Positions 33,252 to 63,081 of a stretch of 64,000 bases of DNA are shown here, piece after piece (the first letter of the stretch is position 1; each line of letters starts with the position of its first letter). The stretch covers positions 69,886-133,885 of the IMG/VR virus record IMGVR_UViG_3300037183_000125. The stretch is one strand, 5' to 3'. The position numbers and the translations under genes are program-made. Below the pieces are notes generated by a model. The model worked only from the letters and a program-made list of their open reading frames with translations. It had not been told where the DNA came from and did not search any database. The stretch is from a virus. Taxonomy: Duplodnaviria > Caudoviricetes.

Positions 33252-35231
33252 ATGTACGATAGTACTAGTATGATCCCGCAGGAAGAACATCCAAAAAACA
33301 GCAAGTCACACAAGAGAATCGAGTTCCTTTGCGGGTGTGGCCGAAAGTTCAGAACGAGATGGAATAGTTATCCGTCCGGGCAGTCGAAGACATGCGGAAA
33401 ATGCATGCTCGAAAGATGGAAGAGAGAAGGAGGGCGCAGCTATTCAGACTTGACGCTAACAACCGAGGTTGAGTCTATCGGCCGCATGACCGACCATGTG
33501 AAGTGGGAATGCAGATGTGGTCGTCAGAAGAGAATAAAGCTTTTGAACGTGGTGAACGGGTCTGTCAGAAGCTGCGGCTGCCTGATGAAAGAGGTGATAA
33601 GAAAGGCCAGAAAAAACCAGAGGGAGTTCGAGAAAAAGAGCGCCGACGAGTGGATGAAGGAAATACCGGAGATAGTAAATAGGGGTCTCCCGAGCTCATG
33701 GAGCCAAGGGACGTCGGCCATGATCACGTTCCTATGCAAATGCGGACGTGAGTATTCGAGAAAGTTTAGTCGTTTTTCAAGGGAGAAAGGGACGTGCGGT
33801 GAGTGCGACCTGCGAACGTTCCGGACCGGGGAGACGATAGGGGGAATCGTCTATGTCGGGGAAGAGAGAACTGTGCACGAAAGGACGACCCGTCTTGGGA
33901 CATTCCTCTGCAGATGTGGGAAAGAGTTTGAGACACAGTTCAGAAAGGCAGTCCTCCGCCTAAAGACGTCATGCGGGACGTGCAAGGTCATTAAGGAAGA
34001 GGAGATGGGAGGAAGGAAGTTCGGAAAGCTCCGAATGAAGGTCCCGAAGGACGTGTTCCCCGTCTCGGAGATCATGGAAGACTGGGTGTGCGACTGCGGG
34101 AACGAGAAGAGCGTGCAGATAAGCTCAGTGGTGAAGGGAAGAACTTCATCCTGCGGGAAATGCAGAGAGAAGGTGGTCCTCTGGTATGAGACAAACCGAG
34201 AGGCCATCCGTTCCCTCCGGTGTCCTGTGCCGGCCGGAAAGCTCCTGGGAGGAATAAACGTACTCGAGGAGATGAAGAACGTCGGACATAAAGTCCGAGT
34301 CGAGTGCATGCTATGCGGCAAGGAGCACTCGACAAACTTTCACGAAATAAGGTCCGGAGGGTCTCTGACCTGCGGGTGTGCCTCCGTCCACACGTCGGCG
34401 CCGGCCGTGGCCATAGCGGAGGAGCTGCGGAAAGAGGGGGTCGAGGCGCTCCTGGAGCACCAGGCCGGTCCATGGAGGTACGACGTATTCATACCATCCG
34501 CGAACCTACTGGTCGAGTTCAACGGACTAAAATGGCACTCAATGTCGGGAGCCAAGGAGAGGGATGTAAGGAAGTACGAGGAGGCCATCAGGGCCGGTTT
34601 TTCATATATCGCCGTCTTCGAGGACGAATGGAGAACAAAGAGGGAGTCAGTCATGACGCTGATAAGGAACAGAGTCGGGCTGACGCGGCCGAGGAGAAGC
34701 ATCAGACCGGCGAAATGCGAGGTGAGGGAGGTGAGGGCCGGGGAGGCGAACGCGTTCCACACGGCGAACCATTACATAGGCCCATGTAGGTCTAAGGTTA
34801 GCTATGGGGCGTTCCTGGACGGCCGCCTGGTCGCTTGCGCCTCTTTCTCACACCCGACTCGCCAGTCCTCCCATCCGTGGGAGCTCCTCCGGATGGCGTC
34901 CGTCCCCGACGTGCGGGTGCACGGGATCTGGTCTAAGGTTCTGACAGTCTTCATCCGCGAGCACTCGCCCACCTCCATCGTCTCGTTCTCCGACAACCGT
35001 CTCTTCTCCGGAGGGGTGTACGAGAAAATCGGGTTCGAGTATGACGGCGAAGTGGCGCCGGACTATTATTGGACGAGGTCAAAGAAGCGGTATCATAAGT
35101 CCGGCCTCAGGAAAAAAGGCGCCGAGAGGACGTCCGGGCTCACGGAGCGCGAGCTCCGTGAGGCCCAGGGATACAGGAAGATCTGGGACCTCGGGAAGAA
35201 ACGCTGGGTATGGAGACAGAACCATGTTTGA
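33252..35231 (+). mobile_element. Cys4 zinc-ribbon array + Vsr/EDxHD-like nuclease + Mom-like GNAT domain
   Basis: Six CxCG/CxxCG...CGxC modules; YDVFIP...VEFNGLKWH; NHYIG...WELLRM...IVSFSDNR...GGVYEKIGF. A-rich and opposite strand. Start may be ATG 33270. Confidence 0.75.
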
Positions 35232-35523
35232 CCCGAAACTCACGAATGCGAAAAATATGGCCCGCCGAAGGTTCGAGGCTAGGAGTATTCTCGACCGAGA
35301 GAAGGCGAAGAGGCCTTGCAAGGACTGTGGACATAAATACCACTCGTGCCAGGTCGACGTCCTCAGAAAGGGGGGAGGGCGAAGAGTGCCGATGGCGCAG
35401 ATGCTGCATCTGTCGATCGACAGAATCATGGAAGAGATAGGCAGATCCGACCTAGTGTGCGCCAACTGCTCGAGGCTGCGGGTCCACATGAGGGACCGAA
35501 TGCGCCGAAGCGGGCCAACGTAA
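35224..35523 (+). CDS. Degenerate single HNH-like protein
   Basis: Start ATG 35224; PCKDCG...EEIGRSDLVCANC retained, but the DFDH catalytic motif is replaced by QVDVL. Confidence 0.55.
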   Translation: MFDPKLTNAKNMARRRFEARSILDREKAKRPCKDCGHKYHSCQVDVLRKGGGRRVPMAQMLHLSIDRIMEEIGRSDLVCANCSRLRVHMRDRMRRSGPT

Positions 35524-35552
35524 GTGGGGGTCAGGTCCCCGTAAAGCACGAC

Positions 35553-35834
35553 ATGGCAAACGGCGGATACGACAGAGAACGAGACGGGAACATCATCGGG
35601 TGGTGGCTACGCTGGATGCTGGTCGGCGTCCTGGCCGCAGTCGGCGTATTCCTCGTCCTCATCCACGTCGCCAACGTCAGGGTCGAGAAGCAGAGGGAAT
35701 ACCGCGAGGAGTGCTACGAGCACGGGCCCCGCGACTCGGACGGCGACCCCGTCTGCGACCGGGACTTCATGCCGTCATACACGTCCTCGAGCCCCTATTT
35801 CAGGTCCTCGAAAGCCGTCCCGTCCGGATCTTGA
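35553..35834 (+). CDS. Small membrane protein
   Basis: Start ATG 35553 (near-match motif GTAAAGC 5 nt upstream); one TM segment WMLVGVLAAVGVFLVLIHVA. Confidence 0.6.
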   Translation: MANGGYDRERDGNIIGWWLRWMLVGVLAAVGVFLVLIHVANVRVEKQREYREECYEHGPRDSDGDPVCDRDFMPSYTSSSPYFRSSKAVPSGS

Positions 35835-36426
35835 GGGAAGGCTTAGACACCCTCCTTAGGGGGAAGGATCTCTCGAGAGAGAAGGATATCCTGACAAGAG
35901 CGGCCTTCTCTATCTGACGAACCCGCTCCCTGGTCAAGCCAAGTTCAGCGCCGACAACCTCAAGCGTCTTCTCCTTGATGAGACGGTCCATGATCACTCT
36001 CTTGTCACGAGGTTTGAGCTCGGACAAGGCCGTCCGGACGAGGACGGCCTCCTCGTCCGCCATCATCTTCACGTCGGCCGGTATGGAGTCGCTCGACAGG
36101 TGGAGGTCCCCGGCGTCGTCGTCCACGCTGACCGACTTGTAGCGATCCCGCCGCATGTTCGCTTGGGAGTAATGGTGGAGGGCGTTGAAAGCGTTCGTCA
36201 TCACACGGCGCGCGTAGGTCTGAAAGTTGGCCCCGTTGTTCGGGTCGTAGGTCTCGTGCGCGCGCCACAAGCCCTGGCGAGCATGGTTCATGAGCTCGTC
36301 GTAGTCAAACCAGAACCTGAGACGCCAAAGGTTCTTCCTGACTATGAAGTGTGCAAGCTTGTCCCATTTCTTGAAAAGATCGGCATGCCCGGGAACACGG
36401 CATCCAAAAACTCCTATAGTAGACAT
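35800..36426 (-). CDS. Phage-encoded sigma-70 family sigma factor
   Basis: Region 2 DELMNHARQGLWRA..TYDP..GANFQTYA; region 4 TLEVVGAELGLTRERVRQIE. Confidence 0.9.
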   Translation of the reverse strand: MSTIGVFGCRVPGHADLFKKWDKLAHFIVRKNLWRLRFWFDYDELMNHARQGLWRAHETYDPNNGANFQTYARRVMTNAFNALHHYSQANMRRDRYKSVSVDDDAGDLHLSSDSIPADVKMMADEEAVLVRTALSELKPRDKRVIMDRLIKEKTLEVVGAELGLTRERVRQIEKAALVRISFSLERSFPLRRVSKPSLKIRTGRLSRT

Positions 36427-36452
36427 CAGCTCCGAGATCCAGAAGAAAAGAG

Positions 36453-37856
36453 TTAGTCAATACCTTTTATGTTGGCGACCGGGTACATCCTACGGGAGAC
36501 CTTGGCTATGCCGGCGGACACGAGGGTGTCGAGGACGGCGTCCAGGTCCTTGTAAACATGACCGCACTCGTCGAGGACAACGTCGCGCGTGTTGGTCAGG
36601 ATACCCCTTACCTCAACACCGCCGAACGTCCGGCGAACATCCCGCATCTCGTCGTTGATCTCGTCCTGGAGAGGCTCGAGCTGGCGCTTCGCAGCGCCAC
36701 GGCCGAGAACGCGCCCGGAGCCGTGGTTCACCGAGCAGGCGGACACGTGGGCGCCGGGCTCCGCGAAGAGGACGGCAGCCCCATGGTACATGGAGCCCGG
36801 GATGAGGCACGGATGGCCGGTTTTCTCCCATACGGTCCCGACGAGGTCCGGGTGGCCGGAGGGGAAGGCCCGTGTCGCGCCCTTTCGGTGCACGAACCCG
36901 CGCTTGGTGGTCCCGTCCGGGAGGACGAGAGTCTCCTGCTGGACCAGGTTGTGGGAGATCTCGTAGAAGAGCTCAGCGCCGACGCCGAACACCTCCTGGA
37001 GTGAGTCCACGACTCCCTCCGCGATGATGTGACGGTTCGCGACGGCGAAGTTGGCCGCCGAGTTATGGTAGGCCCAATATTCCTTTCCGAGGGGCTCGTC
37101 ATATCGAAGCCACGAGTCCTCACGACGGTTCCGGGCGATACCGCGAAGCTTAGCCCCCTCGAAGAAAAAATGGTTTGCGGTCTGCCAGCCATAGCCGCGC
37201 GAGCCGCAGTGGACCATGACGAAGACCTCGCCCGACTCGGCGTCAACCTGCATCTCCACAAAGTGGTTTCCGCCGCCCACGGACCCGAGCTGGTCGGACA
37301 CCTTTGAGCGAGCTTTCTCGATCAGGTCGAGGTCGAGGTCGTCCGGGATGGGTATATGCTGGCGCTCGCAGAGGTCCGCGCGAACGCCGAGGGCCCTGGC
37401 CCCATAGCGGAGGACCTCCTCCCCCTTCTTCGCGGAGAACCTCGGCATGAGGTCCGGACGGCTCGAGCCAACGCCGGTGGCGATGCGCTTCTCCACCTCG
37501 TCCATCCAGAGACGGCGTTTCCCAGGGTCCACGACGTCCGCGGCCGTGAGGCCGGTCCTCATATAGAGGACCCCGCAGGAGATGTCATAGCCGGAGGCCG
37601 CCTGGATGATGACGTCGTCCGTGACGACGACGCACCCGACGGGGACGCCATAGCCGAGGTGGCAATCCGGCATCGCGTACGCGCCGGTCACGCCCTCGTA
37701 GGAGGCGGCGGCCGAGAGCTGCCTCCACATCTCTTCCTCAGAGGCGTCGTACAGGGCCTCGGAGAGGAACGCATGGGCGTCCACCCTCATCCCGGCGGTC
37801 TTGGGCAGGACGTAGTGGCCGGCTGAAGCCTGGGCGGCCCGGAACTTGAACGACAT
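36453..37856 (-). CDS. rtcB: RtcB-family RNA ligase
   Basis: MPDCHLGYG, GYDISCG, LGSVGGGNHFVE, HCGSRG, SHN, HRKGAT, PGSM, HGSGR and YKD motifs are all present. Confidence 0.95.
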   Translation of the reverse strand: MSFKFRAAQASAGHYVLPKTAGMRVDAHAFLSEALYDASEEEMWRQLSAAASYEGVTGAYAMPDCHLGYGVPVGCVVVTDDVIIQAASGYDISCGVLYMRTGLTAADVVDPGKRRLWMDEVEKRIATGVGSSRPDLMPRFSAKKGEEVLRYGARALGVRADLCERQHIPIPDDLDLDLIEKARSKVSDQLGSVGGGNHFVEMQVDAESGEVFVMVHCGSRGYGWQTANHFFFEGAKLRGIARNRREDSWLRYDEPLGKEYWAYHNSAANFAVANRHIIAEGVVDSLQEVFGVGAELFYEISHNLVQQETLVLPDGTTKRGFVHRKGATRAFPSGHPDLVGTVWEKTGHPCLIPGSMYHGAAVLFAEPGAHVSACSVNHGSGRVLGRGAAKRQLEPLQDEINDEMRDVRRTFGGVEVRGILTNTRDVVLDECGHVYKDLDAVLDTLVSAGIAKVSRRMYPVANIKGID

Positions 37857-37862
37857 GGCCAG

Positions 37863-37869
37863 ACACTAC
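37863..37869 (-). promoter_or_regulatory. GTAnnGT motif (GTAGTGT), 6 nt before the rtcB ATG
   Basis: Recurrent motif; no SD. Confidence 0.55.
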
Positions 37870-38162
37870 ATTCGGGAGACGAGACGGCAGGCCATGCGCT
37901 CGAAGGCGGTCTGGGACAGCGACGCGGAGGCCTCGTCGCCCTTCGGGGCTGGCGTGCCGGGGGCCTTCTGGCTCCATTGGTCTCCTGCGGAGGTCTCAAA
38001 CACCACAGCTGGATAACCGTCTATTTTGATTTCTCCAACATAAGAGGCATCGTTGAGAACAAATTCAGGAAGTTCCTGAACGTCCCACTGTCCGTCACCT
38101 TCCAAGTGAAAGGCAGGTCCGGGGACCAAGCTAGGCTGCTTCTTCATGGAGTTCCCGCTCAA
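37866..38162 (-). CDS. Small hypothetical protein
   Basis: Fills the gap between the HNH gene and rtcB; likely start ATG 38147. Confidence 0.55.
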   Translation of the reverse strand: MSGNSMKKQPSLVPGPAFHLEGDGQWDVQELPEFVLNDASYVGEIKIDGYPAVVFETSAGDQWSQKAPGTPAPKGDEASASLSQTAFERMACRLVSRM

Positions 38163-38880: not shown

Positions 38881-38893
38881 ACCTCGGGGCGAT

Positions 38894-41742: not shown

Positions 41743-41762
41743 TGTTCGCCTTTTTGGAGGCG

Positions 41763-43449: not shown

Positions 43450-44481
43450 TCACTTGACGAGCTCAGCGTTCTTGATCAAGATTTCGGAAAAGACGAGAAA
43501 ACCGTTCGGCCTGAGAAACGAGACGAGACCCTGATCCTGCATGGAACGGCAAGGAAGGCAGCAAACACGGCCGCGAACACAGCTTCGTTTGCCCTCCACG
43601 GAGGAGTCACAAAAACAGCACACAGAGCTCCGAGAAAGATAAAGCTTTCTTTGACGCTCCACGGACTCCGGCGTGTGGCGGCGCCCAGTCGAGGCAGCGG
43701 AGATCTTGGCCTTCGTCTCGTCCGAAAGACGGCGGCCGGTCATGCCGGTCATCTTGGTCGGGTCGGACCATGCGCGCCTGGAGGAGGCCGAGAGCTTCGC
43801 CCGCACCTCGGGGGAGGCCATGGCCTCACGGAGGGCAGACACACGCCTCTCCTTGACGCCAGGACGGGCGGACGAGGCGCGAGAGGCCTCGGACATGCGG
43901 GCCCGGGCGTCGGGCGAGGAAAGTGACTCCTTGAGGGTGGAGGAGATGGAAGCCTTGAAAGCCGGGTCGGCATAGACGACAGCGCGCTTTTCGACGGTCT
44001 CGGGGCGGGCGAGGGCGGCCTTCGTTAAGGCAGAGCGCTTGGCCCTCGACTCCGGGGAGCGGAGAGAGGCCTTCTGCTTCTCGCGGGCCTCAGGAGTTAA
44101 AAGGGGCGATATGTCACGAAGCATCATCTTCTCCCGAAACTCGGGACGATCCCATGGATTCCTGACGGGGTGCGGGGTGTGGAATCCACCTTTTTTCAGG
44201 TTGAAACCCTTCTCCGGGTTCGTCGTGTCAAAGTGGGAAATCCATTCCTGCTCGGCTGCGTTCGCGGCCTCGAGAGTGTCGCAAGTGGCGAGCACCTCGT
44301 GATCGAACGCGTCTTTCCCGTATTCGCGCAACGCGTTCGCGAAATGAGACCAACCCTTCTTGCTCAATGCTTTACATTGAGTTAAATGCTGACCCCAACG
44401 TCTTTGCCAGGTACGGGCCGTGAGCCCTACGTAGCGTCGTCCGGATTCGACATGAATATGACAGTAGATGGTCCATACCAT
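43450..44481 (-). mobile_element. GIY-YIG homing endonuclease with NUMOD3-like helical repeats
   Basis: WTIYCHIH..SGRRYVGLT...PEKGFN; LSDETKAKIS and HTPES repeats; terminal Cys finger. Confidence 0.85.
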
Positions 44482-44525: not shown

Positions 44526-47500
44526 TCAAAGCCTTATCCGGACTTGTATCGTGCTGGTTATATATTCCAGGGGGAATACCGGCACGTAAATCGCCTCGGT
44601 GCGCATGATGGTCGGGTCGTTGTCGTCCACGGAGACCGCGATGCCGGCGACCTTCTGCACGATCTGCTGATCGATCAGGGTCGAGAAGAGGCCGACGAGG
44701 GCGCTCTCTACAGTCTTGATCAGACCTCCCGTGAACTTCTGGCCGATGTACGGGTCGAGGACGCGACGGATGGACTGCTGGACGAACTGGATGGTCAGCG
44801 TCACCGAGGGCGTGCGCGTGATCACGTTCGAGACGTTCGTCGTCAGGCCGTGGCGGACCCGCATCCCGGCGTCGACCTGCTCGATGATCGACACGCCGTT
44901 GACGGCCACCTGGTTCGCCTCGGTCGGGTCGAGGACCCTCCCGAGCTTCTTGAACCCGAAGACCTGGCGGCGCGTCCAGGGGGTCGCGACGTCGACGGAC
45001 GGGTTGCAGGAGGCGCCGGCGAGGGCCGCGGCCATGTAGGTCGCGTCCACCAGCTGGTCGAACGTGTTTCCGCTGTTGTCCTGGACCGAGAGCACGTAGG
45101 CGTCGGGGTAGCTGACGACCATGAGCTCGGAGGCCAGGCTCTGGGCGATCGAGGTGACGCCCAGCGGGTTCGTGCCGGCGGCCGGGCCGACGACGCCGAT
45201 GCGCTCGCCCTCCTGGCGCGGGGACGACATGAACACGCAGTGCTGGTTCAGGTACCCGAAGATCTCCGGGTCGGTTCCGAGGGGCGTGATCACGTCGGGC
45301 TTCACGGAGCCCTGGATGGGCTTGCGCTGCTCGTCGATCGCCGCCTTGTACGCGCCGACCGAGGCCTGGGACGTGCCCGGGACCTTGAGGACCTGCTTGA
45401 GGCCGACGAGGACGGCGCCGTTGTTCTGGGCGACGGCCGCGGCGAGCGACAGCGGGAAGTCCGGGGTCTGGCTACCGAAATTCTGGATGATCGTCTTCGA
45501 GCTGCTGAACAGCTGCGTCGACAGGTCGGTTTTCGCGTACTGGTAGCTGGCGTAGTAGATGTCTCCGACGGCGGGCTCGGAGCCGCCCTTCTCGAAGGTG
45601 GTCACCAGGGCGGTGGTCCCCACGGCCATGCCGAGGGTGTTGAACACCGTCATCTCGAGGCCGTCGACGGCGCGGACCGGGATGGAGGCGTCCGCCGCGA
45701 AGGTGGAGGAGCAGACCAGGGTGAATGATCCGCCGTCCGCGTAGTCGCCGGCCGAGGCCGGCAGGACGGTGAAGCGCAGGCCGGTGACGGCGTCCGTGTA
45801 CGTCTGGCCCGGGATGCCGATGCCGGACGAGCCGCCCGGGGTGGAGCTCGAGACCTGGAAGCCAGACTGGGCCGCCTCGCCGGAGTCCCCGCTTACGCCC
45901 GGGACGATCCCGATGCCCGTGTCCGTCACGAACGCCGAGTTGGAGACGTTGGTGAAGGAGATGGTGGAGGTCGAGCCCGCGGTCCGCGAGCTTATCGAGA
46001 GGAAGTTCCCGAGGCCCGGAGCGAGGATGTTGTAAGCCACGCCGAGGGCGTTGAACGCCGAAGCGTAGTTCAGGGCCGAGGCAATGTCCGAGGCGCTCGG
46101 CTGAAGGCGGGTCACGGAGCCCGGCTGGAAGCCGAGGACCGAGTTGGCCGAGCCAAGAGAGGAGATCGCCACGACGGACGAGACGTCGTTGACCAGGGAG
46201 TCCAGGACCACGAAGCCGGCCTGGATGCCGAGACCGACGCGCGCTACGAGGACCGCGTTCGCCGTCGTCAGGACGTGGGTGACGTCCGCAGCGTTGTGGA
46301 CGACCGCGTTCGCAATGTGGCCCGCGTAGTGGACGGACACGTTGTAGAGGAACCGCATCGCCGACGGGAGGTCCGTGGGGACCGTCTCGGTGATGGTGTT
46401 CGTCGCGTCGGGCGAGTTGTGGACGGCGGCCGCGACGTCGATGATGTGCGCGTTGAACTTCGCCTTGATGTCCGCACACAGGGTTAGGAGGGAGGCCAGG
46501 GTCGTCGCGTTCGTCGCTGTTACAATGTTCGTCGAGTCGGCAGAGCCGTGAGATGTCAGAAAGGGGATGTGGAGATTGTACTTCGCCTTGATGTCGTTCG
46601 CGAAGGTGATGGCGGCCGCCAGGGCGGCAGCTTGCCCGGCCGCCGGGGCGGTCGCGGCGTACCCGGCGTTGACGTAGTTAACCACCGCGGCGACCGGGAC
46701 GGCCGTGCCGTTCGGGAGGACGGCCGTGTAGTCCTGGCCGTCGATGCCGAACAGGAACAGGTCGTTCACGTTCTGGACGATGTTGTACGCGCCGAGCTTG
46801 GTGCCGACGAGCTCCGCCGGCTGGTTGATCGCGCTGTAGCTGCCGTCGACCTCGAGGTTCGGGGTCAGGCCGAGGGCGACCGCGGCGTTCGTCTGGCCGG
46901 ACCCGGTCGGGGTCTGGATCTTGACGTTCGACACGAGGCCGTTGGTGGCGGACTGGGTGCTGCGGCCGACGATCTTGAGGATCGACTGCGCGCCGTACGA
47001 GACGGCCGACGCAAGAGCGTTGGGGGCGCTCGAGAGGAAGGTGGCGCTTCCGTCAGGGTGAACCTGGGTGTCCGCATCGATGGCAGCGTTGATCGCCGTG
47101 ACGACGGTAGAGAGGGAGGTCAGAGTTGAGACATCGACGAGAACTATGATCCCGTCGACCTGGACGGAAAGGCGGGCCGTCGACGGTAGTGCCGTGAACG
47201 GAGTCGCGATCGGCTGGCCCAGCATGACCGGCTTGTAGGCAGCGCTGAGGTCGACCGAGACCGGCGCGTTGCCGTCGATCACGACCCCGCCGAACAGGCG
47301 GGTGTAGCTGTAGATGCTGTACGGGTCAGCGTTCGCGTTCGAGAACGACGCGTGGGTGGCCGGCAGGAGGGAGGTATGGAACCCGACCGTGACGGTCTCG
47401 GCAACCGGGCTCCCGCCGAAGTAGAGGGCGTCCGGCAGGCTCTGAGAGCCCGACGGCCATTGGACGATCTGCGGCAGGGAGTTCTTGGTTCCGAACTTCA

Positions 47501-49196
47501 CGCCGAAGAGCGGGGCGCCGTTCGCGAGCTGTGAGGACAGCGTGTACGTGCCGACGCCGCTCGGGCCTGGCGTCACCACGGTGAGGGTATAGGTGTCGTC
47601 CTGGACAGTGTTGTACCAGAACGTCGCGAAGGCCTGCAGGTCCGCGGGGACCGGCGTCTTGAGCGTCACCAGGTTCGTCGACGAGTCGACGTCGAGGACC
47701 GTGACGGCCGGGCGCGAGTACGCATCGCGGAACGACTTGCCCACGTACACCGTAACGAGGTCGGGGCGGTTTGTCGGGAGGTCGATCCTGCCGTTGGTGA
47801 TCGTCTGGTACAGGCTGGTCCCGAGGGGCGTGTCGCGGCCGTTGCCGGTCGTAGCCTTGAGGGGGAGCACGAATGTGGTCGTAGAGACGGCGTTCGTGGT
47901 CGGGTCTGTGTAGCGCGCGACAGGAACGCCGAAGATCCGGTTGTCCACGAGCATGCCGACAACCTGGGTCGAGTCGAACGGGGTCGAGCCGGTGGTCTCG
48001 CCCGGGAGGACCTGCCACGAGGTCCCCCAGACGATCTTCGACTGGTCGCCGTCGTTGACGATGGTGAAGTCCGGGCCGTTCAGGTAGTCCCTGCGGCCGG
48101 GGGCAATGCCGACGTTCCCGACCGACACGACGTTCGAGTTCGGGAGATAGTCGAACGTGTCCTGCCAGGTGTTGAACCAGTACTGGACGGTAACGGTCGA
48201 GCCGTCGAACGGGGCGGCCTGAAGAGTCACGTTGCTGTTGGCGCCGTCGACCGAGGCCGGAATGACCTGGAGGCCGTTGACGAGCACGACAACCTTGGAG
48301 GTGTCCGTGGTAGTGATTCCGCCGTCCGAGCCGTCGACGATCGGGCCGTTGAACACGCGGAAGGACTTGTTGCGGCCGGTGCTGTCGCCGGGGTTGAAGC
48401 CGAGGACGCCGTCCGCCGTGCCGGAGCCGACACGGACGTTGCCGGAGGCGATGAGCTGGACGTGGCTGAGGCCGGCGGCGTCGATGTGCACCGACGCCGA
48501 GAGGCCGGGGACGGCCGCCGCGATGACGTCGGTCGCGATGTCCGAGGCGGCGCGGGTCCCGGCCGTCAGGGTGATGTTGACGGAGGTCGCCGAGTCGTTG
48601 ACGAACACCTCGAGGACGTCGTTAGTGCCGGCCTGAATGACGTAGAGCTCGGTCTTCGGGGCCACCAGGATGGCGGCGCCCGTGGTCACCTGGGACGACA
48701 CACCGTCGACGATCCTCGTGTCCTTACGGTGAAAGAAGTAGTTGACCGAGACGTTGTCGCCCGGGGCGGGCGGGACGAGCAGGGTGATGATGCCGTTCAG
48801 GCCGTCGACCTGAGAGACCACGGTCTGCTGGCCGTTCACGCTGACGGAGACCTTCGAGACGTCGTAGTCCACCTTGCCGGTGCCGCCGCCGTCGACGATC
48901 GGATAGTTCCTGACACGGAAGGCAGCGCGGCCGCCGTCCTGCGACCCGAGGACCGGGTTGTTCGGGGCACCGCCGACCACCCAGCGTCCGGTCGGATCCT
49001 CGCCGAAGATCGGCGTGTCCGCGAAGGAGCTCGAGCCGCGGATCATCTCCACGTCGGTCTGGGTCAGGGTCTCTTGCCCGACGCCGATGAGCACCGGAAC
49101 GCGGAGCCCTCCGAGCAGCTGGCCCACCACGGGGTCCAGAATGGTCTGGGTGTATACCCCCGGTGGTGCGTAGGTCGTAAAGGGTCCGATGGTCAT
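44526..49196 (-). CDS. Tail sheath protein, very large (~1556 aa)
   Basis: N-terminal YAPPGVYTQT; C-terminal sheath domain (ERIGVVG, MAAALAG, GVSIIEQ..MRVRHGLTT, YVPVFPLEYI). Start ATG 49196 with GAGGA SD. Confidence 0.9.
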   Translation of the reverse strand: MTIGPFTTYAPPGVYTQTILDPVVGQLLGGLRVPVLIGVGQETLTQTDVEMIRGSSSFADTPIFGEDPTGRWVVGGAPNNPVLGSQDGGRAAFRVRNYPIVDGGGTGKVDYDVSKVSVSVNGQQTVVSQVDGLNGIITLLVPPAPGDNVSVNYFFHRKDTRIVDGVSSQVTTGAAILVAPKTELYVIQAGTNDVLEVFVNDSATSVNITLTAGTRAASDIATDVIAAAVPGLSASVHIDAAGLSHVQLIASGNVRVGSGTADGVLGFNPGDSTGRNKSFRVFNGPIVDGSDGGITTTDTSKVVVLVNGLQVIPASVDGANSNVTLQAAPFDGSTVTVQYWFNTWQDTFDYLPNSNVVSVGNVGIAPGRRDYLNGPDFTIVNDGDQSKIVWGTSWQVLPGETTGSTPFDSTQVVGMLVDNRIFGVPVARYTDPTTNAVSTTTFVLPLKATTGNGRDTPLGTSLYQTITNGRIDLPTNRPDLVTVYVGKSFRDAYSRPAVTVLDVDSSTNLVTLKTPVPADLQAFATFWYNTVQDDTYTLTVVTPGPSGVGTYTLSSQLANGAPLFGVKFGTKNSLPQIVQWPSGSQSLPDALYFGGSPVAETVTVGFHTSLLPATHASFSNANADPYSIYSYTRLFGGVVIDGNAPVSVDLSAAYKPVMLGQPIATPFTALPSTARLSVQVDGIIVLVDVSTLTSLSTVVTAINAAIDADTQVHPDGSATFLSSAPNALASAVSYGAQSILKIVGRSTQSATNGLVSNVKIQTPTGSGQTNAAVALGLTPNLEVDGSYSAINQPAELVGTKLGAYNIVQNVNDLFLFGIDGQDYTAVLPNGTAVPVAAVVNYVNAGYAATAPAAGQAAALAAAITFANDIKAKYNLHIPFLTSHGSADSTNIVTATNATTLASLLTLCADIKAKFNAHIIDVAAAVHNSPDATNTITETVPTDLPSAMRFLYNVSVHYAGHIANAVVHNAADVTHVLTTANAVLVARVGLGIQAGFVVLDSLVNDVSSVVAISSLGSANSVLGFQPGSVTRLQPSASDIASALNYASAFNALGVAYNILAPGLGNFLSISSRTAGSTSTISFTNVSNSAFVTDTGIGIVPGVSGDSGEAAQSGFQVSSSTPGGSSGIGIPGQTYTDAVTGLRFTVLPASAGDYADGGSFTLVCSSTFAADASIPVRAVDGLEMTVFNTLGMAVGTTALVTTFEKGGSEPAVGDIYYASYQYAKTDLSTQLFSSSKTIIQNFGSQTPDFPLSLAAAVAQNNGAVLVGLKQVLKVPGTSQASVGAYKAAIDEQRKPIQGSVKPDVITPLGTDPEIFGYLNQHCVFMSSPRQEGERIGVVGPAAGTNPLGVTSIAQSLASELMVVSYPDAYVLSVQDNSGNTFDQLVDATYMAAALAGASCNPSVDVATPWTRRQVFGFKKLGRVLDPTEANQVAVNGVSIIEQVDAGMRVRHGLTTNVSNVITRTPSVTLTIQFVQQSIRRVLDPYIGQKFTGGLIKTVESALVGLFSTLIDQQIVQKVAGIAVSVDDNDPTIMRTEAIYVPVFPLEYITSTIQVRIRL

Positions 49197-49318
49197 TTCA
49201 GTTCCTCGTTCGAGCAAAGACCTAAAAATCGAGGTTTCAGTATCAAGTATGTGAAGAGAAAAGTCTGAGTATTAATCTCATCGCTCGAGTCAAGCTGACT
49301 AGATATGAAGAGCCTAGT

Positions 49319-49331: not shown

Positions 49332-51284
49332 GTGCTGACCCCAGTAAAAGGACAGAGTCTACCAACAGACGGGTCAAGAAAGCATGTCCTATTCAACTGC
49401 TCCTGCGGGAGAACCTCCATCCTGAGGGAATGGAAGTCGTTCAAGAACGGTCATGCGAAGACGTGCGGGGAGTGCGGGCTATTACCGAAGTCCTACTGGA
49501 ACAGCACGTCGTTCGGGAAGCTGCGGATGAAGGATCCGAAGGACATGCACAGGATGTCCGGGAAAACGGAAGAATGGCTCTGCGAGTGCGGTAAGACGGC
49601 CTCCCTGAAGGTGAGACAGGTAACTACAGGGAGAACCGGCTCATGCGGCAGGTGCAACATTCTTCCGGCGTCGCACTTCATCTCTACGAAATATGGGAAG
49701 CTCCGTATGATGGAGCCAGTCGACACCCACCCGACGTCACACAAGAAGATGAAATGGATGTGCGACTGCGGAGGCGAGAGCGTGGCGACAGTCGCCAACG
49801 TAACGCGCGGATCAATCAAGACGTGCGGTAGATGCAACGTCCTGTCGGCATCACATTTTTCGGAGACGAAATATGGAAAGCTCCGGATGAAAAACCCGTC
49901 AGCCTTCCACGAAGGGACGGAAAAAATAGTCGCATGGACTTGCGACTGCGGCAGGACAATAGAGACAAGTATCGGGTGGGTGACAAAAGGAGATACAAAA
50001 TCGTGCGGAGACTGCAATCTCATATCAGCCGAGAAACTGGCAACCGAAAAGTTCGGGAGACTCCGGATGCAAAAACCGGAAAACTTCCACGCCGGCTCGA
50101 ACAGGAAGGTGTTGTGGATATGCGACTGCGGGAACAAGACGTTGGCGGTCTTCAGAAACGTTGTAAAGGGATACACAAAGTCATGTGGCGACTGTCGGAG
50201 AGGGGTGATCGAATGGTACCTAAGGAACAAAGACAAGATCAGAAATATGAGGACACCGATTAGGCAAGAAGACCTTCCTAAAGCGAGCCCGTTCACAATC
50301 TTGACGGTCATAGAACACACGGAAAGACCGTTCCGGTCTAAATGTGCGGTCTGCGGGGACGAGTTCTGGCCGATATGGGGGAACGTCAGAAACGGAAAAG
50401 CCCTGACGTGTGGATGCGGCATGAACAAGTCATCAATGGCGCAGAGGGAGATATTGAAGGCGATTATCGGTCTTGGCGTCGAGGCGGTCATGGAGGAGGA
50501 CGTGAACGGATTAAAATATGACGTGGCCGTCCCGTCGAAAAGATTATTGATCGAGTTCAATGGCCTGAGGTGGCATAGTTCACCTGACTCGAGGGAGAGG
50601 GACAATAGGAAATACTTGAACGCAATCAAGTCCGGACACCAGTTCCTCATGATATTCGAGGACGAGTGGAGGAACAATCCAGAAAAGGTAGTGCAGCTTA
50701 TTCAGAATAGGATCGGAAGAGGAAAACCGAGATCCGTCAGGCCGAGCGCATGCGAGCTAAAGGAGGTCGATCCGAAAGCGGTAGAACGCCTATACGAAGA
50801 GAACCATTATATCGGAATGTGCAGGGCCAGAGTCCATCTGGCGGTAGTCCTGGAAGGCAAAGTGATAGCAGCCGCCTCCTTCGCTAGGCCGACCAGGCAA
50901 TCCTCCCACCCGTGGGAGCTCGTCCGCATGGCCTCCGATCCAGGCTTCCGGGTTCACGGGATATGGTCCAAGTTAATGCACGAGTTCGTCCGGAGACATG
51001 AGCCACCGTCCATTGTCTCGTTCTCCGACAACAGACTCTTCGGAGGGGGCGTGTACGAGAAGGTTGGCTTCAGGCACGATGGTGACATAAGGCCCGACTA
51101 TTACTGGACGAAGGGCGGCAGGAGGTATCACAAGTCTGGCCTCCGGAAGAAAGGCGAGGAGAGGACGTCCGGTCTGACGGAGACACAACTCCGGGAGGCG
51201 AAAGGATACAGGAAGATCTGGGATCTCGGAAAGAAGCGATGGATATGGAGGGCTAACCCCCGGCATCCTTCTTCGCGGCCTTGA
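49332..51284 (+). mobile_element. Cys4 zinc-ribbon array + Vsr/EDxHD-like nuclease + Mom-like GNAT domain (paralog of 33252-35231)
   Basis: Six Cys4 modules; YDVAVP...IEFNGLRWH; NHYIG...WELVRM...IVSFSDNR...GGVYEKVGF. Confidence 0.75.
49512..50231 (+). repeat. Four imperfect 180-bp (60-aa) tandem coding repeats
   Basis: (F/Y)G(K/R)LRM codons recur at 49512, 49692, 49872 and 50052. Confidence 0.85.
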
Positions 51285-57279: not shown

Positions 57280-57554
57280 GTAAGCATGACCTCAGCCATA
57301 AGCTGATCCTCGGGAGAGGCCATGAGAAGGTAGACATCCCAGCGAGGCCCGACAAGACTCGGAGTGGGAAGACACCGGACGACCCTGTGGAAGCCGTCGG
57401 CCTCCTCGAAAATCGACCCGACCTCATAGAACCTCTTGACGTTCCAATGGACCCTCGAGTACTGATCGAGGACGGACTCGAGCCTAACCGACACGAGGTA
57501 CTCGCACACGCCCCCCATAATCTTCTGGTGTACATCCTGGATCTCGCTGTCCAC
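57276..57554 (-). CDS. Small hypothetical protein ending AEVMLT
   Basis: GTG start with GTACGGT motif (57560-57566) 5 nt upstream. Confidence 0.55.
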   Translation of the reverse strand: MDSEIQDVHQKIMGGVCEYLVSVRLESVLDQYSRVHWNVKRFYEVGSIFEEADGFHRVVRCLPTPSLVGPRWDVYLLMASPEDQLMAEVMLT

Positions 57555-57637
57555 GACCTACCGTACACCGATCACTGGGGCGAATGCCTGCGAAGCACCC
57601 CACGAACAGTAGTCCATACTACCAATGACGCGTTGCG

Positions 57638-58966: not shown

Positions 58967-58981
58967 ACGGGAACAGCCCGA

Positions 58982-59269
58982 TTAAGAGTCGCTCTCAGGC
59001 CGGGTGAGGGGAGGGTCTTGGACCTGGACCACGACGGCGCCGTTCTCGACGCGCGCGCCGAGGCACTGCTGAAGGTCCAGGCCGGCGCCCTCCATGGCCG
59101 CGTTCATCTGCTTCATCCGGGCGGCGTAGAGCGTCCCGAGGGTGCTCTTGAGGGCCTCCTCCTGAAGGAGGAGCTTCCCGAGCTCGACGGAGTGGTGAAG
59201 GATGGAGTTGTCGACGTCCGTGAAGTAGCGTCTCTGGTCGTCGTTCAGCTCGAAAGTGCGCATTCCCAT
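58982..59269 (-). CDS. Small coiled-coil hypothetical protein
   Basis: 95 aa; GTAACGT motif (59276-59282) 6 nt upstream. Confidence 0.65.
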   Translation of the reverse strand: MGMRTFELNDDQRRYFTDVDNSILHHSVELGKLLLQEEALKSTLGTLYAARMKQMNAAMEGAGLDLQQCLGARVENGAVVVQVQDPPLTRPESDS

Positions 59270-59285
59270 GGAGGGACGTTACCCG
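59254..59285. repeat. Direct repeat copy 1 (32 bp)
   Basis: aagtgcgcattcccatggagggacgttacccg; matches 59727-59759 except for a 1-nt indel. Confidence 0.9.
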
Positions 59286-59295
59286 AGCGGGTCGA

Positions 59296-59691
59296 TCAGA
59301 AGATCGCGTTCATCAGCTCGCCGGGGTCGCGCGAGGCGACCGTCTCGGCGTCGTTCGGGTCCTCGAGGGGGAGGTCGCCGTAGTTGAATCCGGACATGTC
59401 GGAAGTGTTCCAGACGGCCACGTTCCCGTCGGACTTCTTGATCACGACGGCGGCGTCCGGGGACGAGTCCAGGTGAGACCAGAGAGCGTCGCCGTCCATC
59501 CCGGTCAGGCCGGAAGCGTTGTTCATGTCGTCGAAGGTGGTGAGCTTGGCGGTATACTGGGCCGTTTCCATGGCGACGAGTACGCGCCGCAGCTCGCGAG
59601 CTACGAGGACCTTGCTCGGCCTCTTGGAGGCATCGATGACGGAGGCCATTCGGCGAAGGTGGGCGGACAGGCGGTTGGGGGACAGGCTCAT
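59296..59691 (-). CDS. Protein with conserved ~40-aa basic leader and unique acidic C-domain
   Basis: Leader ...IDASKRPSKVLVARELRRVL shared with 59771-60259. Confidence 0.75.
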   Translation of the reverse strand: MSLSPNRLSAHLRRMASVIDASKRPSKVLVARELRRVLVAMETAQYTAKLTTFDDMNNASGLTGMDGDALWSHLDSSPDAAVVIKKSDGNVAVWNTSDMSGFNYGDLPLEDPNDAETVASRDPGELMNAIF

Positions 59692-59726
59692 GATATGTAT
59701 CCTTTTACAAAAAGACTAAATGTCGT

Positions 59727-59759
59727 AAGTGCGCATTCCCATGGAGGGAACGTTACCCG
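59727..59759. repeat. Direct repeat copy 2 (33 bp)
   Basis: aagtgcgcattcccatggagggaacgttacccg. Confidence 0.9.
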
Positions 59760-59770
59760 GGAGAAGCGCT

Positions 59771-60259
59771 TCAGGGTATGGGAGAAGGATCGAAACCTTG
59801 CTGAGCGGCGGCTTCGGCCCACGCGGGAGTCCGACTTATGAGATAAGGAATCGCCTCGGTGAGTTCGTCCTGCACGGAAGGGGCGAAGCCGTAGAAGGTC
59901 TCGCCGGCCATCCCGATGCCGCCGAGATCCAGGTCTCGCCCATCGGGCCAATCCATGGTGATAGTACCGGCGAACTCAAAGCCTTTAGAAGCCCCCTCTT
60001 GGACGATGTCGTCCTTCGGGTTGTTCGTGATCCCGGACAGACCGATGATCTTGAAAGTGAGAGATCCGAAGTCTGACTCTTCGGCCGGAATGTACTGACA
60101 GCTAGTGAGCTCGGTGCGACCGTCCTTTGATGTGTTCTTCATGGCAGCCAGTACGCGGCGCAGCTCACGAGCTACGAGGACCTTCGACGGTCTCTTGGAA
60201 GCATCGATGCGGGAGGCCACGGAACGGAGCACAGAGGAGAGGCGGTTGGGGGTTATCAT
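59771..60259 (-). CDS. Protein with conserved ~40-aa basic leader and unique acidic C-domain
   Basis: Leader shared with 59296-59691. Confidence 0.75.
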   Translation of the reverse strand: MITPNRLSSVLRSVASRIDASKRPSKVLVARELRRVLAAMKNTSKDGRTELTSCQYIPAEESDFGSLTFKIIGLSGITNNPKDDIVQEGASKGFEFAGTITMDWPDGRDLDLGGIGMAGETFYGFAPSVQDELTEAIPYLISRTPAWAEAAAQQGFDPSPIP

Positions 60260-60271
60260 GTTATTTCCCTT

Positions 60272-60643
60272 TCAGACGTCGTTGACGTCGCATTCAAGGC
60301 GTAACGGGCGGACCGTGACGCCGTTCGACTTCAGGTTCATCGAGCGGGCGACGTCCGTCATCGACTCCTTGACGGCCGAGAGGAGCGACGACTTGAGCTT
60401 CCGGACGAGGTTCGCCTTCCCGGCGACGCCCTCGAAGGAGGCCGAGATGTCGAGCTCGATGCGGCAGGCGATCTCCGGGCCGGAGGACAGGACGTCCTCG
60501 GAGACGGTCTCCAGAGAGTCCGCCACGTCGCGGCGCGGGGCCGAGCGCTTGCGCTTCTTCGGGCGGGGCTTGCCCCTCTTCGCCGCCGTCACGGAGACGG
60601 AGGCCACGCGGGAGGCCATGCTGCGGAGGTCGGAAGTCTGCAC
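60272..60643 (-). CDS. Hypothetical protein
   Basis: Start reassigned to GTG 60643 (MQTSDLRSMASRVAS) because GTACTGT (60650-60656) lies 6 nt upstream and this removes the overlap with 60665-61264. Confidence 0.6.
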   Translation of the reverse strand: MQTSDLRSMASRVASVSVTAAKRGKPRPKKRKRSAPRRDVADSLETVSEDVLSSGPEIACRIELDISASFEGVAGKANLVRKLKSSLLSAVKESMTDVARSMNLKSNGVTVRPLRLECDVNDV

Positions 60644-60664
60644 GCCGGGACAGTACATAGAGAG

Positions 60665-61264
60665 GTGAAGACGACACCCGAGGAGGCCACGAGAAGGGCC
60701 GCAGTTACCAGGCTGGAGAGCGTGAAGGCGGTCTTCCGACAAAGAACAGAGAAAAGCTCCGGACGAAAGGATATGACCCTCGCAGTCTCCTTCACGGTCG
60801 AGTGCGAAGGGCGAAGGGCGAAGGGGAGGATAGTCGACACATGCCAGGAATTCGTCTTCGACAGACATGGGAACAAGGTCCTGATCCCGGGGACCAAAAA
60901 GAACTGGTTCAATTGGGCTCCCCCGAAAAAGCCGGTCGAGGACGCCGTGCTGTCGGCAGTCTACGGGACGACGAACGTCAGGAACGACCCGAAGAGCAAC
61001 ACAGCACGGTCCATCTCATGGGAGAGCGGGAGAATAATAGCGTCTCTAGCCCATAGGGTGGCGATGCACATAAGGTCGAAGAAGATGACCGAAACCCTTC
61101 TCAGGGCGGAGAGGTCAGAGCGACGGAAGAACATGCTGGACGACATGACATCGGCGATAGAAGAAGTCTTGAGAAAATATCCGGAGATGCAGAAGAAAAA
61201 CCTGGACCTGGCGTTCGAGGAGGCCAAGAAGGCCCAAGTAGTCCGGGAGGTGATGGAGACGTAG
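60665..61264 (+). CDS. Basic hypothetical protein ending REVMET
   Basis: 199-aa ORF divergent from 60272-60643. Confidence 0.55.
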   Translation: MKTTPEEATRRAAVTRLESVKAVFRQRTEKSSGRKDMTLAVSFTVECEGRRAKGRIVDTCQEFVFDRHGNKVLIPGTKKNWFNWAPPKKPVEDAVLSAVYGTTNVRNDPKSNTARSISWESGRIIASLAHRVAMHIRSKKMTETLLRAERSERRKNMLDDMTSAIEEVLRKYPEMQKKNLDLAFEEAKKAQVVREVMET

Positions 61265-61287
61265 ACTCCTTGTCCCGCACAGCGGGC

Positions 61288-61509
61288 ATGGACTTCCATG
61301 CCATGGCCGTACGCGTCGCCGGATACGACTTCAAGACGAAGATGAAGATCAACGCCCTCGTCATCTCGGAGCTCGCCCGCGAGACGGGGCTCGGGGAGAA
61401 CGACGTGGCGATGGCGATCCTCGAGTCCGGCGTGCACAAGCAGATCCAGGAGCTCGCGGACGCGATGGGGGACGAGGCGGAGAAGTTGAAGGGGAAGAAG
61501 GCGGCCTGA
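61288..61509 (+). CDS. Small hypothetical protein
   Basis: Start taken at ATG 61288 (MDFHAMAVRVAG); strong GC3 bias. Confidence 0.6.
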   Translation: MDFHAMAVRVAGYDFKTKMKINALVISELARETGLGENDVAMAILESGVHKQIQELADAMGDEAEKLKGKKAA

Positions 61510-63081
61510 TTAGCGCTTTGAGAGAGGGTAGACGAACTTCAGCTTCCTCGGGGTCAGAACTTTTCGAAGGCCAAGACGCATGACATGGTCTGACTCCTTG
61601 AGGCCAGAAGCCCTGGCGCGGGAGTAGACGGCTTTCTTGTTTAGCTCGACACCGTCCTCGTCGACGTAAAAATAGGACTTCCCGGTCCTCCCGACGAAGG
61701 TCCAGTTCGAGGCTCTGTAGAGGCCACCCGAATGACCGAACCTCGGGTCTGCGAAAGATATGAGGGCCTCAAGACCAGGAAAATCCCGTCGGACAAGTCG
61801 TATGCAGGCGGACATCATGAAGGAAGAAAAGTTCTTCTTATGATATCCCGGCCTCACGCAAAAACGGTCGAGCTCAAGGGACGCGGAATCCCTGAAGCCA
61901 GACGAGGAGGCTACCCTCTGACGGACCAGGCTAGCGAACTTACACTCGCCGATGACCTCGTCGTCAAGGACGGCGACATAGGAAACAGTAGCGGCGCGAC
62001 CGTAGCCAGCATAATGATGGGAGTCAAGAAAAGACTTTGACCCGCCAGAGGGGACGAAAGAGACGACAGAAAAGTCAAAATCGACAACTGGCTTCCCGAT
62101 AGACCTCGTCATCTTTTTCAGATAGTTGCAGTTCTGACAGAGTAGTTGAAAGGCCTCCCTGTCGAGCTCGCCGGACAGGATTTTCGGATGAAGATTAAAT
62201 CCGAGCCTTTCAAAGAAAGCGTTTCTGCGAAACTGTCCGTCGTCTTGGACATGGTCAAGACATAGGGAGAACTCATCCGTAGAGCCGCACTCGACGCAAG
62301 CACTCCCGTAGAGGCTGAAGCACTCTCTCCTAAGTTTCCGTCGTGAGTCACGCCGGCACCCGCCGCACTCATTAAGAATATGAAGGTCGTCGGAACTTCT
62401 TACGGAGAAGTTGCACTCATCAAGATCAAGATCACAAGTCCGACAGTGGAGAAGGCGCCCAGTCTCAACGCGAGCCTTCAGAAGCGACCCAGGGCTCGAA
62501 ATGAACTTCCTGGAGTTGCAATTACGACACAAGATCTGGTACTTGGACAGGTCAGCCTCTCCAGAGGCTATGGAAACCTTTATATGGAAACTTCCCTTGC
62601 GACGCCGCTCAACATTCCCGTCATCGAGGACGTGATCCACCGTCAGGAGATCACGACAGGACTCCCCGCACGATGCGCAGGACGAGCCGAGCTTCGCAAG
62701 GACGACAGAGAAAACGTCATGACAGCGCTGACGACGCTTGGCGGCCAAGGACTCAGAGTTTCTGGAACGATAACCAGCGAGATAGGAGAGCCTTTCCTTC
62801 CGGTTGTTCAGATAGTAAATCTTCTTCCCATCGAGAGCCCGCTGCCGATTCCGTGAGTACCAAGTTGTCTCCCGGAACCCGGGGAGAGATGAGCTCATGG
62901 CATACTTTGATCGGATGCGCGCATTGTGGGAATCTCTATTCTCATAAACCCACTCATTTCGTCTTGACGAGCGACATGACTTGCAGGCGGCGTCTTTACC
63001 GTCCTTGCCACATTTATTGTTGTAGAAACCGCTCTTCAGGTCCTTCTCAGAACCGCACTTGGAACAAACCCTCGTCGCCAT
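61510..63081 (-). mobile_element. Tandem HNH-like endonuclease fused to a Mom-like GNAT domain
   Basis: Two CxxCG...DHV.DDG...Q.LC.NCN domains (family of 4345-5106 and 8658-9506), then HHYAG...LELDRF...LISFADPRFGHSGGLYRASNW. Confidence 0.75.

Follow-up and report, generated by a model that had tools for sequence, protein, structure and literature searches.

Three mobile nuclease genes of a jumbo-phage fragment end in a Mom-family domain: candidates for homing nucleases that mark and cut DNA

What would a domain from a family of DNA-hypermodifying enzymes be doing at the end of a selfish nuclease? The question is posed by three genes, here termed A, B and C, in the last 64 kb (the whole stretch analyzed, 64,000 bases, hereafter the window) of the 133,885-base IMG/VR virus record IMGVR_UViG_3300037183_000125. 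Because this 134-kb record is estimated to be only about 31% complete, it is a fragment of an uncultured jumbo phage, and one of high GC content (62% overall and about 66% in the core genes of the window's phage). Each of the three genes encodes a nuclease followed by a C-terminal domain that resembles Mom of phage Mu, and a preliminary description of the window had interpreted them as single-chain elements that modify their own DNA and cut unmodified competitor DNA. This cut-and-modify interpretation is partly supported by the analysis reported here. A, B and C are very probably mobile nuclease genes with a true Mom-family domain, and a scheme in which that domain would shield its carrier from the attached nuclease is tentatively proposed. 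The genes and their parts are the following.

33252..35231, plus strand: gene A, 659 amino acids (aa), a free-standing gene of the Hef-like homing endonuclease family whose product ends in a Mom-like domain; intact open reading frame (ORF)
33252..34373, plus strand: N-terminal Cys4 zinc-ribbon array of A (treble-clef, DUF4379-like), seen as repeated CxC/CxxC pairs in the translation
34374..34688, plus strand: Vsr-like (EDxHD) nuclease domain of A, residues ~375–479, from an AlphaFold2 model with structure and profile matches
34695..35228, plus strand: Mom-like GNAT domain of A, residues ~482–659, from Foldseek, VIA, phrog_1384 and seven Mom residues
49332..51284, plus strand: gene B, 650 aa, a second Hef-like gene with the same three-part build as A; intact ORF
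50412..50726, plus strand: Vsr-like (EDxHD) nuclease domain of B, residues ~361–465, from a match to a hidden Markov model (HMM) and the family alignment
50730..51281, plus strand: Mom-like GNAT domain of B, residues ~467–650, from its identity to the domain of A and the seven Mom residues
61510..63084, minus strand: gene C, 524 aa, a free-standing mobile gene for a twin HNH nuclease with a Mom domain; intact ORF
62491..62709, minus strand: first HNH module of C (endonuclease VII-type, Zn-bound), residues ~126–198, from invariant residues and PHROG matches
62101..62334, minus strand: second HNH module of C, residues ~251–328, from invariant residues
61513..62064, minus strand: Mom domain of C, residues ~341–524, from PF25680, phmmer, Foldseek, VIA and the seven Mom residues

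The plus-strand positions first given for A and B hold, while the third gene is a minus-strand gene that extends to 63084, its ATG being the second codon, at 63081. For gene A, gene callers pick a later start that yields a protein of 608 aa.

The C-termini of A, B and C all contain the motif order (N/H)HY.G – ELxR – SF(S/A)D.R – GG(V/L)Y that had first drawn attention to them. This shared order is not a product of chance, since the domains of A and B are 66% identical, a comparison of the A/B-type profile with the C-type profile by hhalign gives a probability of 98.8% (E 8.8e-17, 159 columns), and C scores 79.3 bits (3.9e-22; cut-off 27.1) against the Pfam family PF25680 'Mom'. The PHROG family phrog_1384, labeled 'Mom-like', is matched by C at 1.8e-26 and by A at 4.9e-9, and phmmer takes C to the crystal structure of Mu Mom (8bv8) at 3.8e-6. 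PF25680 is not reported for A or B in the Pfam scan, in which B shows a weak match to Acetyltransf_1 (0.0053); 8bv8 is not reached by sequence in phmmer searches with A or with the A3 family profile, and an NCBIfam scan of the three proteins returns nothing useful. Many relatives of A and B with 56–79% identity carry the label PF25680.2 in a precomputed Pfam table.

The structural comparison leads to the same family. AlphaFold2 models of residues 375–659 of A (predicted local distance difference test, pLDDT, 94; predicted template-modeling score, pTM, 0.87) and of C (pLDDT 86) both have Mu Mom as their top match in the PDB with Foldseek (A 3.6e-7, C 2.9e-9), followed by ordinary GNATs. In VIA-align, C matches 8bv8 with a Z of 16.3 over 160 residues, the next GNAT reaching 13.6, and A matches it with a Z of 12.5, which is tied with other GNATs (12–14) and comes with the longest alignment (146 residues). 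The structural alignments of A and C extend to residue 224 of the 8bv8 chain, and the models are helical in that stretch, where the Mom insertion lies (~175–209). The assignment of A and B to Mom is thus made from profile–profile comparison, PHROGs, the Pfam labels of their relatives and structure. By its sequence and predicted fold, the shared C-terminal domain is a GNAT of the Mom family, in agreement with the first impression of it.

The motifs also have a functional counterpart. In the 241-residue numbering of Mu Mom, (N/H)HY.G corresponds to H58 and Y59, ELxR to R111, SF(S/A)D.R to D149 and R151, and GG(V/L)Y to Y159, and S124 of Mu Mom is aligned in A, B and C as well. All seven residues (7/7) are identical in the three proteins, and Mu Mom is inactivated or severely impaired when they are mutated (Karambelkar et al. 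2020, PMC7261163; Silva et al. 2026, PMC13219725). Among 133 relatives of A and B, H58, Y59, R111, R151 and Y159 are kept in 100%, D149 in 98% and S124 in 85%; among 59 C-type fusions, five of the residues are kept in 100%, the position of S124 holds either S or T in every case, and R151 occurs in 44%. The preliminary description had used an acyl-CoA pocket as a test of the domain. Such a test is outdated and void, because Mom takes its glycine from Gly-tRNA(Gly) and not from acyl-CoA, as reported together with a solved structure (Silva et al. 2026, PMC13219725). The 134-kb record contains no tRNA gene, for instance one for a tRNA-Gly with which the phage itself could supply the Mom domain.

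A GNAT need not act on DNA, and the domain might instead acylate or use up an aminoacyl-tRNA or modify a protein, as do other tRNA-linked GNATs (TacT, FemX). GNATs are versatile, and Silva et al. 2026 (PMC13219725) point out that the substrates of Mom proteins are not predictable from structure alone. The constant fusion to DNA nucleases argues otherwise, as do the retention of the Mom-specific residues R111 and R151 and, apparently, of the Mom-type insertion, and the clear margin by which Mom is the closest structure for C; a non-DNA substrate is thus regarded as highly improbable. For the DNA-directed reading, which is preferred, the balance tips slightly towards a predicted Mom domain that is catalytically active in A, B and C.

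The pattern of conservation along the proteins bears on this expectation. In nine Hef-like genes of the phage group, mean pairwise identity is 58% in the Mom domain, 43% in the nuclease and 37% in the N-terminal array. The Mom domain is the most conserved part and must therefore be under strong constraint, and it is not the part that varies with the target. Such a gradient would be expected if a constant catalytic head were carried by a targeting part that varies. The idea that the Mom domain is a decaying remnant was considered and rejected, as no other part of these proteins is so well conserved.

The nucleases to which the domain is attached belong to two unrelated types, as the preliminary description had stated: Vsr-like (EDxHD) in A and B, and endonuclease VII-type twin HNH in C. 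Hef itself had already been placed in the EDxHD family (Taylor et al. 2011). The nuclease model of A aligns in VIA with the catalytic domain of I-Bth0305I (3r3p; Z 11.6, root-mean-square deviation 2.5, 93 residues), with 3hrl (Z 11.7) and with Vsr (1cw0; Z 11.1), and a profile of 31 family members matches 3r3p at an E of 1.8e-5 with the E.NG..WH and D motifs aligned. The D, N, H and D residues are conserved in the A/B nuclease family alignment, with D37, H55 and D64 (model numbering) present in at least 90% of 31 homologs. The Pfam family MTES_1575 is matched by A at 2e-6, below its cut-off, and by B at 3.1e-9, and an HMM derived from the nuclease section of alignment A3 recognizes the nuclease of B at 2e-40. 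Nearly full-length matches connect both proteins with phrog_559 (A 8e-84, B 1.2e-68) and phrog_3339 (A 9e-61, B 4.8e-57). The zinc-ribbon array of A is presumed to be its DNA-recognition part. That of B has an exact 180-bp period in its gene, and Pfam DUF4379 is matched by B (1.2e-9) and by relatives.

Protein C matches phrog_2255 (3.2e-16) and phrog_1035 'endonuclease VII' (1.2e-12), and Pfam HNH below threshold (0.0098). In 25 homologs, with identities to C down to 35%, C136, C139, D150, H151, C186 and C189 of the first HNH module are invariant and N188 and N190 nearly so, and in the second module C266, D277, H278, C316, N318, C319 and N320 are invariant and C263 nearly so. By these residues, the active sites of both nuclease types, EDxHD in A and B and HNH in C, are intact. 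In structure searches with the 524-residue model of C, the matches are GNATs aligned to residues 337–524, which fill both lists. Two further genes of the window contain the twin-HNH part and lack the Mom domain, as previously noticed.

4345..5106, minus strand: gene D, 253 aa, a paralog of the twin-HNH part of C that lacks a Mom domain, identified by BLASTP
8658..9542, minus strand: gene E, 294 aa, a paralog of the twin-HNH part of C that lacks a Mom domain, identified by BLASTP; inner ATG at 9506

Both are paralogs of the N-terminal ~330 residues of C (BLASTP; D 32% identity, E-value 1e-23; gene E 30%, E-value 3e-22), and both terminate immediately behind the second HNH module, where they abut the next gene. 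Since the next gene follows the second module directly, neither D nor E holds a remnant of a Mom domain. A recent loss of the domain from these genes was rejected as an explanation, there being no remnant or spacer after them. Gene E has a GC content of 45.6%. In the first HNH module of D, the family sequence (V/I)-D-H, also found in C and E, reads L-G-H; with the Asp that precedes the catalytic His exchanged in this way, the module may be inactive.

A, B and C are free-standing genes of homing-endonuclease type that form optional insertions between conserved phage genes. They are not the only such genes here, as the window contains at least eight of homing-endonuclease type: three GIY-YIG, two twin-HNH, two Hef-like and one twin-HNH with a Mom domain.

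4345–5106, 5764–6321, 8658–9542, 31497–32516, 33252–35231, 43450–44481, 49332–51284 and 61510–63084: the homing-endonuclease-type genes

The three GIY-YIG genes match Pfam at 1.4e-8 to 4.1e-8, and one of them has a NUMOD3 motif. The GC content at third codon positions (GC3) is 50–71% in all eight genes, compared with 84–93% in core genes; within A, B and C it ranges from 62 to 71% (A 71%, C 62%). In the whole 134-kb record, the ORFs with a Mom domain are A, B and C only.

The homing-gene behavior of A, B and C is seen in their low GC3, their absence from the nearest relative, the precise insertion of A and the swapping of genes between slots. The nearest relative is the contig IMGVR_UViG_3300003323_001324, whose neighboring proteins are 81–93% identical and which lacks A, B and C at the corresponding places, as expected from the mobility that the preliminary description had ascribed to the nucleases. 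For a broader comparison, 133 loci (L014–L146) of related uncultured jumbo phages were fetched with the flanking genes as queries. At site A, between a 223-aa gene and a small conserved ORF, window positions 33227–35253 (2.0 kb) stand in place of a ~75-nt spacer in the closest relative (L046). The small ORF, of 99 aa at 35224–35523 on the plus strand, has a CxxC...H...CxxC pattern (HNH- or zinc-ribbon-like), has no match in Pfam and is present in the gene-less L046. The stop codon of A overlaps its ATG (ATGTTTGA), which places the insertion of A exactly before this ORF, and A may be translationally coupled to it. Beyond the insertion follow a sigma-factor-like gene (35800–36426, minus strand; phrog_351, 3e-21) and an RtcB-type RNA ligase gene (36453–37856, minus strand; phrog_1075, 2e-67).

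The slot of B lies between a 149-aa gene and a 1563-aa gene. In about 25 of 32 related loci it is free of nuclease genes, and B-like genes of ~48% identity occupy it, in either orientation, in six others (L017, L034, L036, L037, L042 and L045). The nearest relative at this position, L040, has a 139-aa zinc-ribbon ORF at 1860–2279 on its minus strand, ending in ...YEVMED. At site C, after a 279-aa gene, a C-like gene is missing in nearly all of 80 loci, including the nearest relatives L067 and L068, and twin-HNH genes with a Mom domain (33–38% identity) are found in L073, L074 and L125. Since the same intergenic slots hold different nuclease families across relatives, with GIY-YIG or twin-HNH genes filling them in other phages, it appears that these sites are contested between different selfish genes.

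Several individual slots illustrate the range of occupants. After the 1563-aa gene, a GIY-YIG gene is found here and in L034 and L042, and a Vsr-type nuclease gene with a C-type Mom domain in L017, L036, L037, L039 and L045. The A slot beside the 223-aa gene contains a twin-HNH gene with a Mom domain in L054 and L055, and the slot of the GIY-YIG gene near the 223-aa gene contains a B-like Hef gene in L047, L052 and L054. The 1563-aa protein itself (44526–49217, minus strand) adjoins B; its last 90 residues resemble the tail sheath C-terminal domain PF17482 at a sub-threshold E of 0.012 with the whole profile covered, and a megablast search with its gene returned no cultured phage relative. The sheath gene may be a recurrent Hef target, because Hef-like genes also adjoin tail sheath genes in the phages PA5oct and CP220.

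This genomic setting bears on whether the proteins are weapons of a restriction–modification kind, directed through short sites against host DNA or that of a superinfecting phage. Such a role is the literal form of a published prediction for Mom–endonuclease fusions (Iyer et al. 2021, Viruses 13:63), and a nuclease and a modifier are indeed joined in one chain. It is difficult to reconcile with full-length membership in the Hef homing family, with the long multi-module DNA-binding arrays, with a presence/absence pattern and slot swapping beside conserved structural genes that are typical of homing genes, and with multiple diverged copies per genome; this role is accordingly considered improbable. 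A tblastn search with the C-terminal domain of A finds 355 cultured-phage records, mostly annotated as Hef or homing endonuclease, among them the hef gene of the T-even phage U5 (E 8e-4), which bears out the statement in the preliminary description that fusions of Vsr with a GNAT are usually labeled Hef-like homing endonucleases and places A and B in that family. By tblastn, the domain is present in 9–11 copies per Campylobacter Fletchervirus genome and in five copies in PA5oct.

In a set of 5.8 billion proteins, the domain of A has 224 matches (E <= 1e-5) in proteins of 362–1154 aa, and the Pfam labels among the matches listed for it are DUF4379, MTES_1575 and Mom. For C, 27 full-length homologs of 34–74% identity were found, and its Mom domain has 2006 matches (E <= 1e-3) among 1.84 billion cluster representatives. 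A survey of the partner nucleases, of the kind that the preliminary description had recommended, shows that in the best 150 of these 2006 a Vsr-like nuclease is present in at least 77 and an HNH nuclease in at least 44, with a few other endonucleases besides; 142 of the 150 are at least 260 aa long with a C-terminal Mom domain, and 8 are short. A tree built from Mom domains places the classical Hefs beside the A/B clade as its sister group (97 and 96 in the Shimodaira–Hasegawa-like approximate likelihood-ratio test, SH-aLRT), and a fully supported branch divides both from a second lineage with Mu Mom, other stand-alone Moms, C-type Vsr fusions and HNH fusions. Nuclease types are interleaved within this C-type lineage. 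Repeated recruitment of the Mom domain onto nucleases, as first suggested, is plausible, the A/B-type and C-type domains being two deep lineages, although the supported branches of the tree do not force more than one origin.

The distribution also touches on a reading in which the Mom domain is active but serves as general anti-restriction cargo, as in Mu, with no connection to the site of the fused nuclease. Evasion of host restriction is the established role of Mu Mom. In 1.63 Mb of related phage DNA, 28 of 28 Mom-domain ORFs are nuclease fusions or fragments and none is a complete stand-alone Mom gene, so that any momylation in the sampled parts of these genomes would come from the fusions. 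Coverage could moreover be widened by the presence of multiple copies whose domains differ slightly, and Iyer et al. 2021, in the relevant passages, report five momylating enzymes in PA5oct. Against such cargo, none of the three genes is found in the closest relative at the corresponding places, which indicates a dispensable function; the twin-HNH genes D and E do equally well without a Mom domain; and a domain held back by a long zinc-ribbon array in front of it would be ill adapted to marking a whole genome. Cargo of this type is distinctly unlikely.

The preferred scheme connects the domain with the site of its own nuclease. In a mixed infection, the nuclease would cut the gene-less allele of a related phage, and repair would copy the gene in, the variable zinc-ribbon array setting the target. 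The Mom domain, if active, would flip an adenine out of duplex DNA and acylate its N6 from an aminoacyl-tRNA, as Mu Mom does. Since nuclease and Mom domain are tethered to one DNA-recognition array, the adenines that it marks would lie at the site of the nuclease or close by. The genome of the carrier would then be spared and unmarked competitor DNA cut, in the manner of a type IIG-like single chain that employs momylation in place of methylation. The whole of this homing and cut-and-protect scheme, with its putative modification, shared targeting and self-protection, is assigned a probability of roughly 0.38. A stricter formulation, by which A, B and C would be site-directed, aminoacyl-tRNA-dependent momylases on a homing nuclease and hypermodification rather than sequence change would confer self-immunity, is possible but doubtful.

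Several considerations weigh against the scheme. A soluble modifier in a mixed infection would mark the competitor's site too, so that a kinetic or positional bias would be needed, and general protection does not call for as many as three copies, or more, in a genome. The prototype of the family, U5 Hef, is said to cut its own DNA as well as that of the target phage in vitro. W48, which is required for dimerization and activity of Mu Mom, is replaced by G in A and C and by K in B, and for W181 no clear equivalent is seen when the three proteins are aligned by sequence; by analogy with I-Bth0305I, dimerization could take place through the nuclease part instead. In nine classical Hefs of cultured phages, including U5 Hef, the only one of them with bench experiments behind it, position Y59 is L, I or V in 9/9, R151 varies, and D149 is changed to N in three (U5, CP220 and Apostate). 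As these classical Hefs miss Y59, and U5 Hef is a working homing endonuclease with demonstrated homing (PMC2988022), the architecture functions in homing even where the canonical Mom site is incomplete. In about 15% of the A/B-type relatives, G, N, R or A takes the place of S124, a residue whose change to Ala leaves Mu Mom dead, and R151 is absent from more than half of the C-type fusions; because of these losses, activity is, on the residue evidence, not universal in the Mom-fusion family and, if it exists, has probably been lost repeatedly within it. In addition, the homolog set of Silva et al. 2026 (PMC13219725) comprises sequences with a Mom domain only, and a literature search found no experiment or assay on any nuclease-fused Mom domain.

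The same residues give substance to another possibility, namely that the Mom-like domain is a non-enzymatic module for DNA binding, base flipping or dimerization, and that self-cutting is escaped through sequence differences at the element's own site. The family persists and U5 Hef works despite the substitutions at Y59, D149 and R151 in the nine classical Hefs, and H58, R111 and Y159 are kept even in those without Y59, which is consistent with a binding pocket that has been preserved. In Mu Mom, duplex DNA is bound by the GNAT cleft and a helix-turn-helix-like insertion (PMC13219725), and the structural alignments of A and C cover this insertion. For the classical Hefs, a non-catalytic DNA-binding role is likely. 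The A, B and C clades, by comparison, keep S124, D149 and R151, which are not needed for the mere fold, and a domain that is more conserved than the nuclease and near-identical at different sites would be odd as a target-reading module. As an account of A, B and C, a non-enzymatic domain is therefore somewhat unlikely, and the cut-and-protect scheme remains the preferred one.

Neither the fusion architecture nor the cut-and-protect idea is new, the latter having been predicted in print, and A, B and C are further well-preserved examples. In the relevant passages, Iyer et al. 2021 describe Mom–endonuclease fusions in jumbo phages and predict a restriction–modification-like role, in which momylation would shield the phage DNA while the nuclease attacks host or superinfecting phage DNA. 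What is added here is that the A/B clade keeps the full set of Mom residues, unlike the nine classical Hefs, and that the Mom domain is the best-conserved part of these proteins. The role of the C-terminal half of Hef-type proteins has been a question since 2005, and the 2021 prediction bears on it. The Gly-tRNA(Gly) finding of 2026, together with the crystal structure, makes a direct assay of a Mom fusion possible, and the genes to test are those of the A/B clade of high-GC jumbo phages and the twin-HNH fusions such as C, rather than the classical Hefs that have lost Mom residues. If the domain proves active, selfish nucleases would protect their own genome by DNA hypermodification, which would constitute a new homing-immunity mechanism and provide a natural programmable or targetable DNA-acylating enzyme.

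Among known systems, the type IIG/IIC enzymes, such as MmeI, join a nuclease and a modifier in one chain with a shared recognition part and serve as a working analogy. They differ from A, B and C in their S-adenosylmethionine-dependent methyltransferase domains, their short sites and their nature as cellular defense genes; no homology between them and A, B or C turned up. I-Bth0305I (3r3p), the prototype of the EDxHD family, has the same nuclease fold and catalytic residues as A and B. It differs in being intron-encoded, in using NUMOD/helix-turn-helix DNA-binding motifs and in ending with the nuclease, without a Mom domain. The fusions of Mom with a restriction endonuclease (REase) fold discussed in the relevant passages of Iyer et al. 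2021 are alike in architecture to A and B, in the kind of phage and in the logic of modifying self and cutting others. Those passages name REase-fold partners only, with no twin-HNH nucleases and no link to Hef homing genes, and they assume an acyl-CoA donor, which has since been superseded.

Mu Mom (8bv8, PF25680), a Gly-tRNA(Gly)-dependent adenine N6-carbamoylmethyl transferase, shares with the domains of A, B and C the GNAT fold, the seven residues and, apparently, the Mom-type C-terminal insertion. It is a stand-alone dimer of 231–241 aa, whereas the domain studied here forms the C-terminus of a nuclease, is 19–23% identical and has neither W48 nor a clear counterpart of W181. With the Hef-like family of U5 Hef, A and B share the order of an N-terminal DNA-binding part, a Vsr-like nuclease and a C-terminal Mom-like domain. 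Its members occur in the Campylobacter phages CP8, CP81 and NCTC12673 (9–11 copies), in PA5oct, as F-LimIII/VII/VIII/X in LIMEstone, and in Acinetobacter and Klebsiella phages. Like A and B, these genes lie next to structural genes that are conserved, for example the tail sheath gene in PA5oct and CP220 and the capsid genes in Apostate. A and B are set apart from the classical Hefs by keeping Y59, D149 and R151 and by an N-terminus that consists of a six-module Cys4 zinc-ribbon array.

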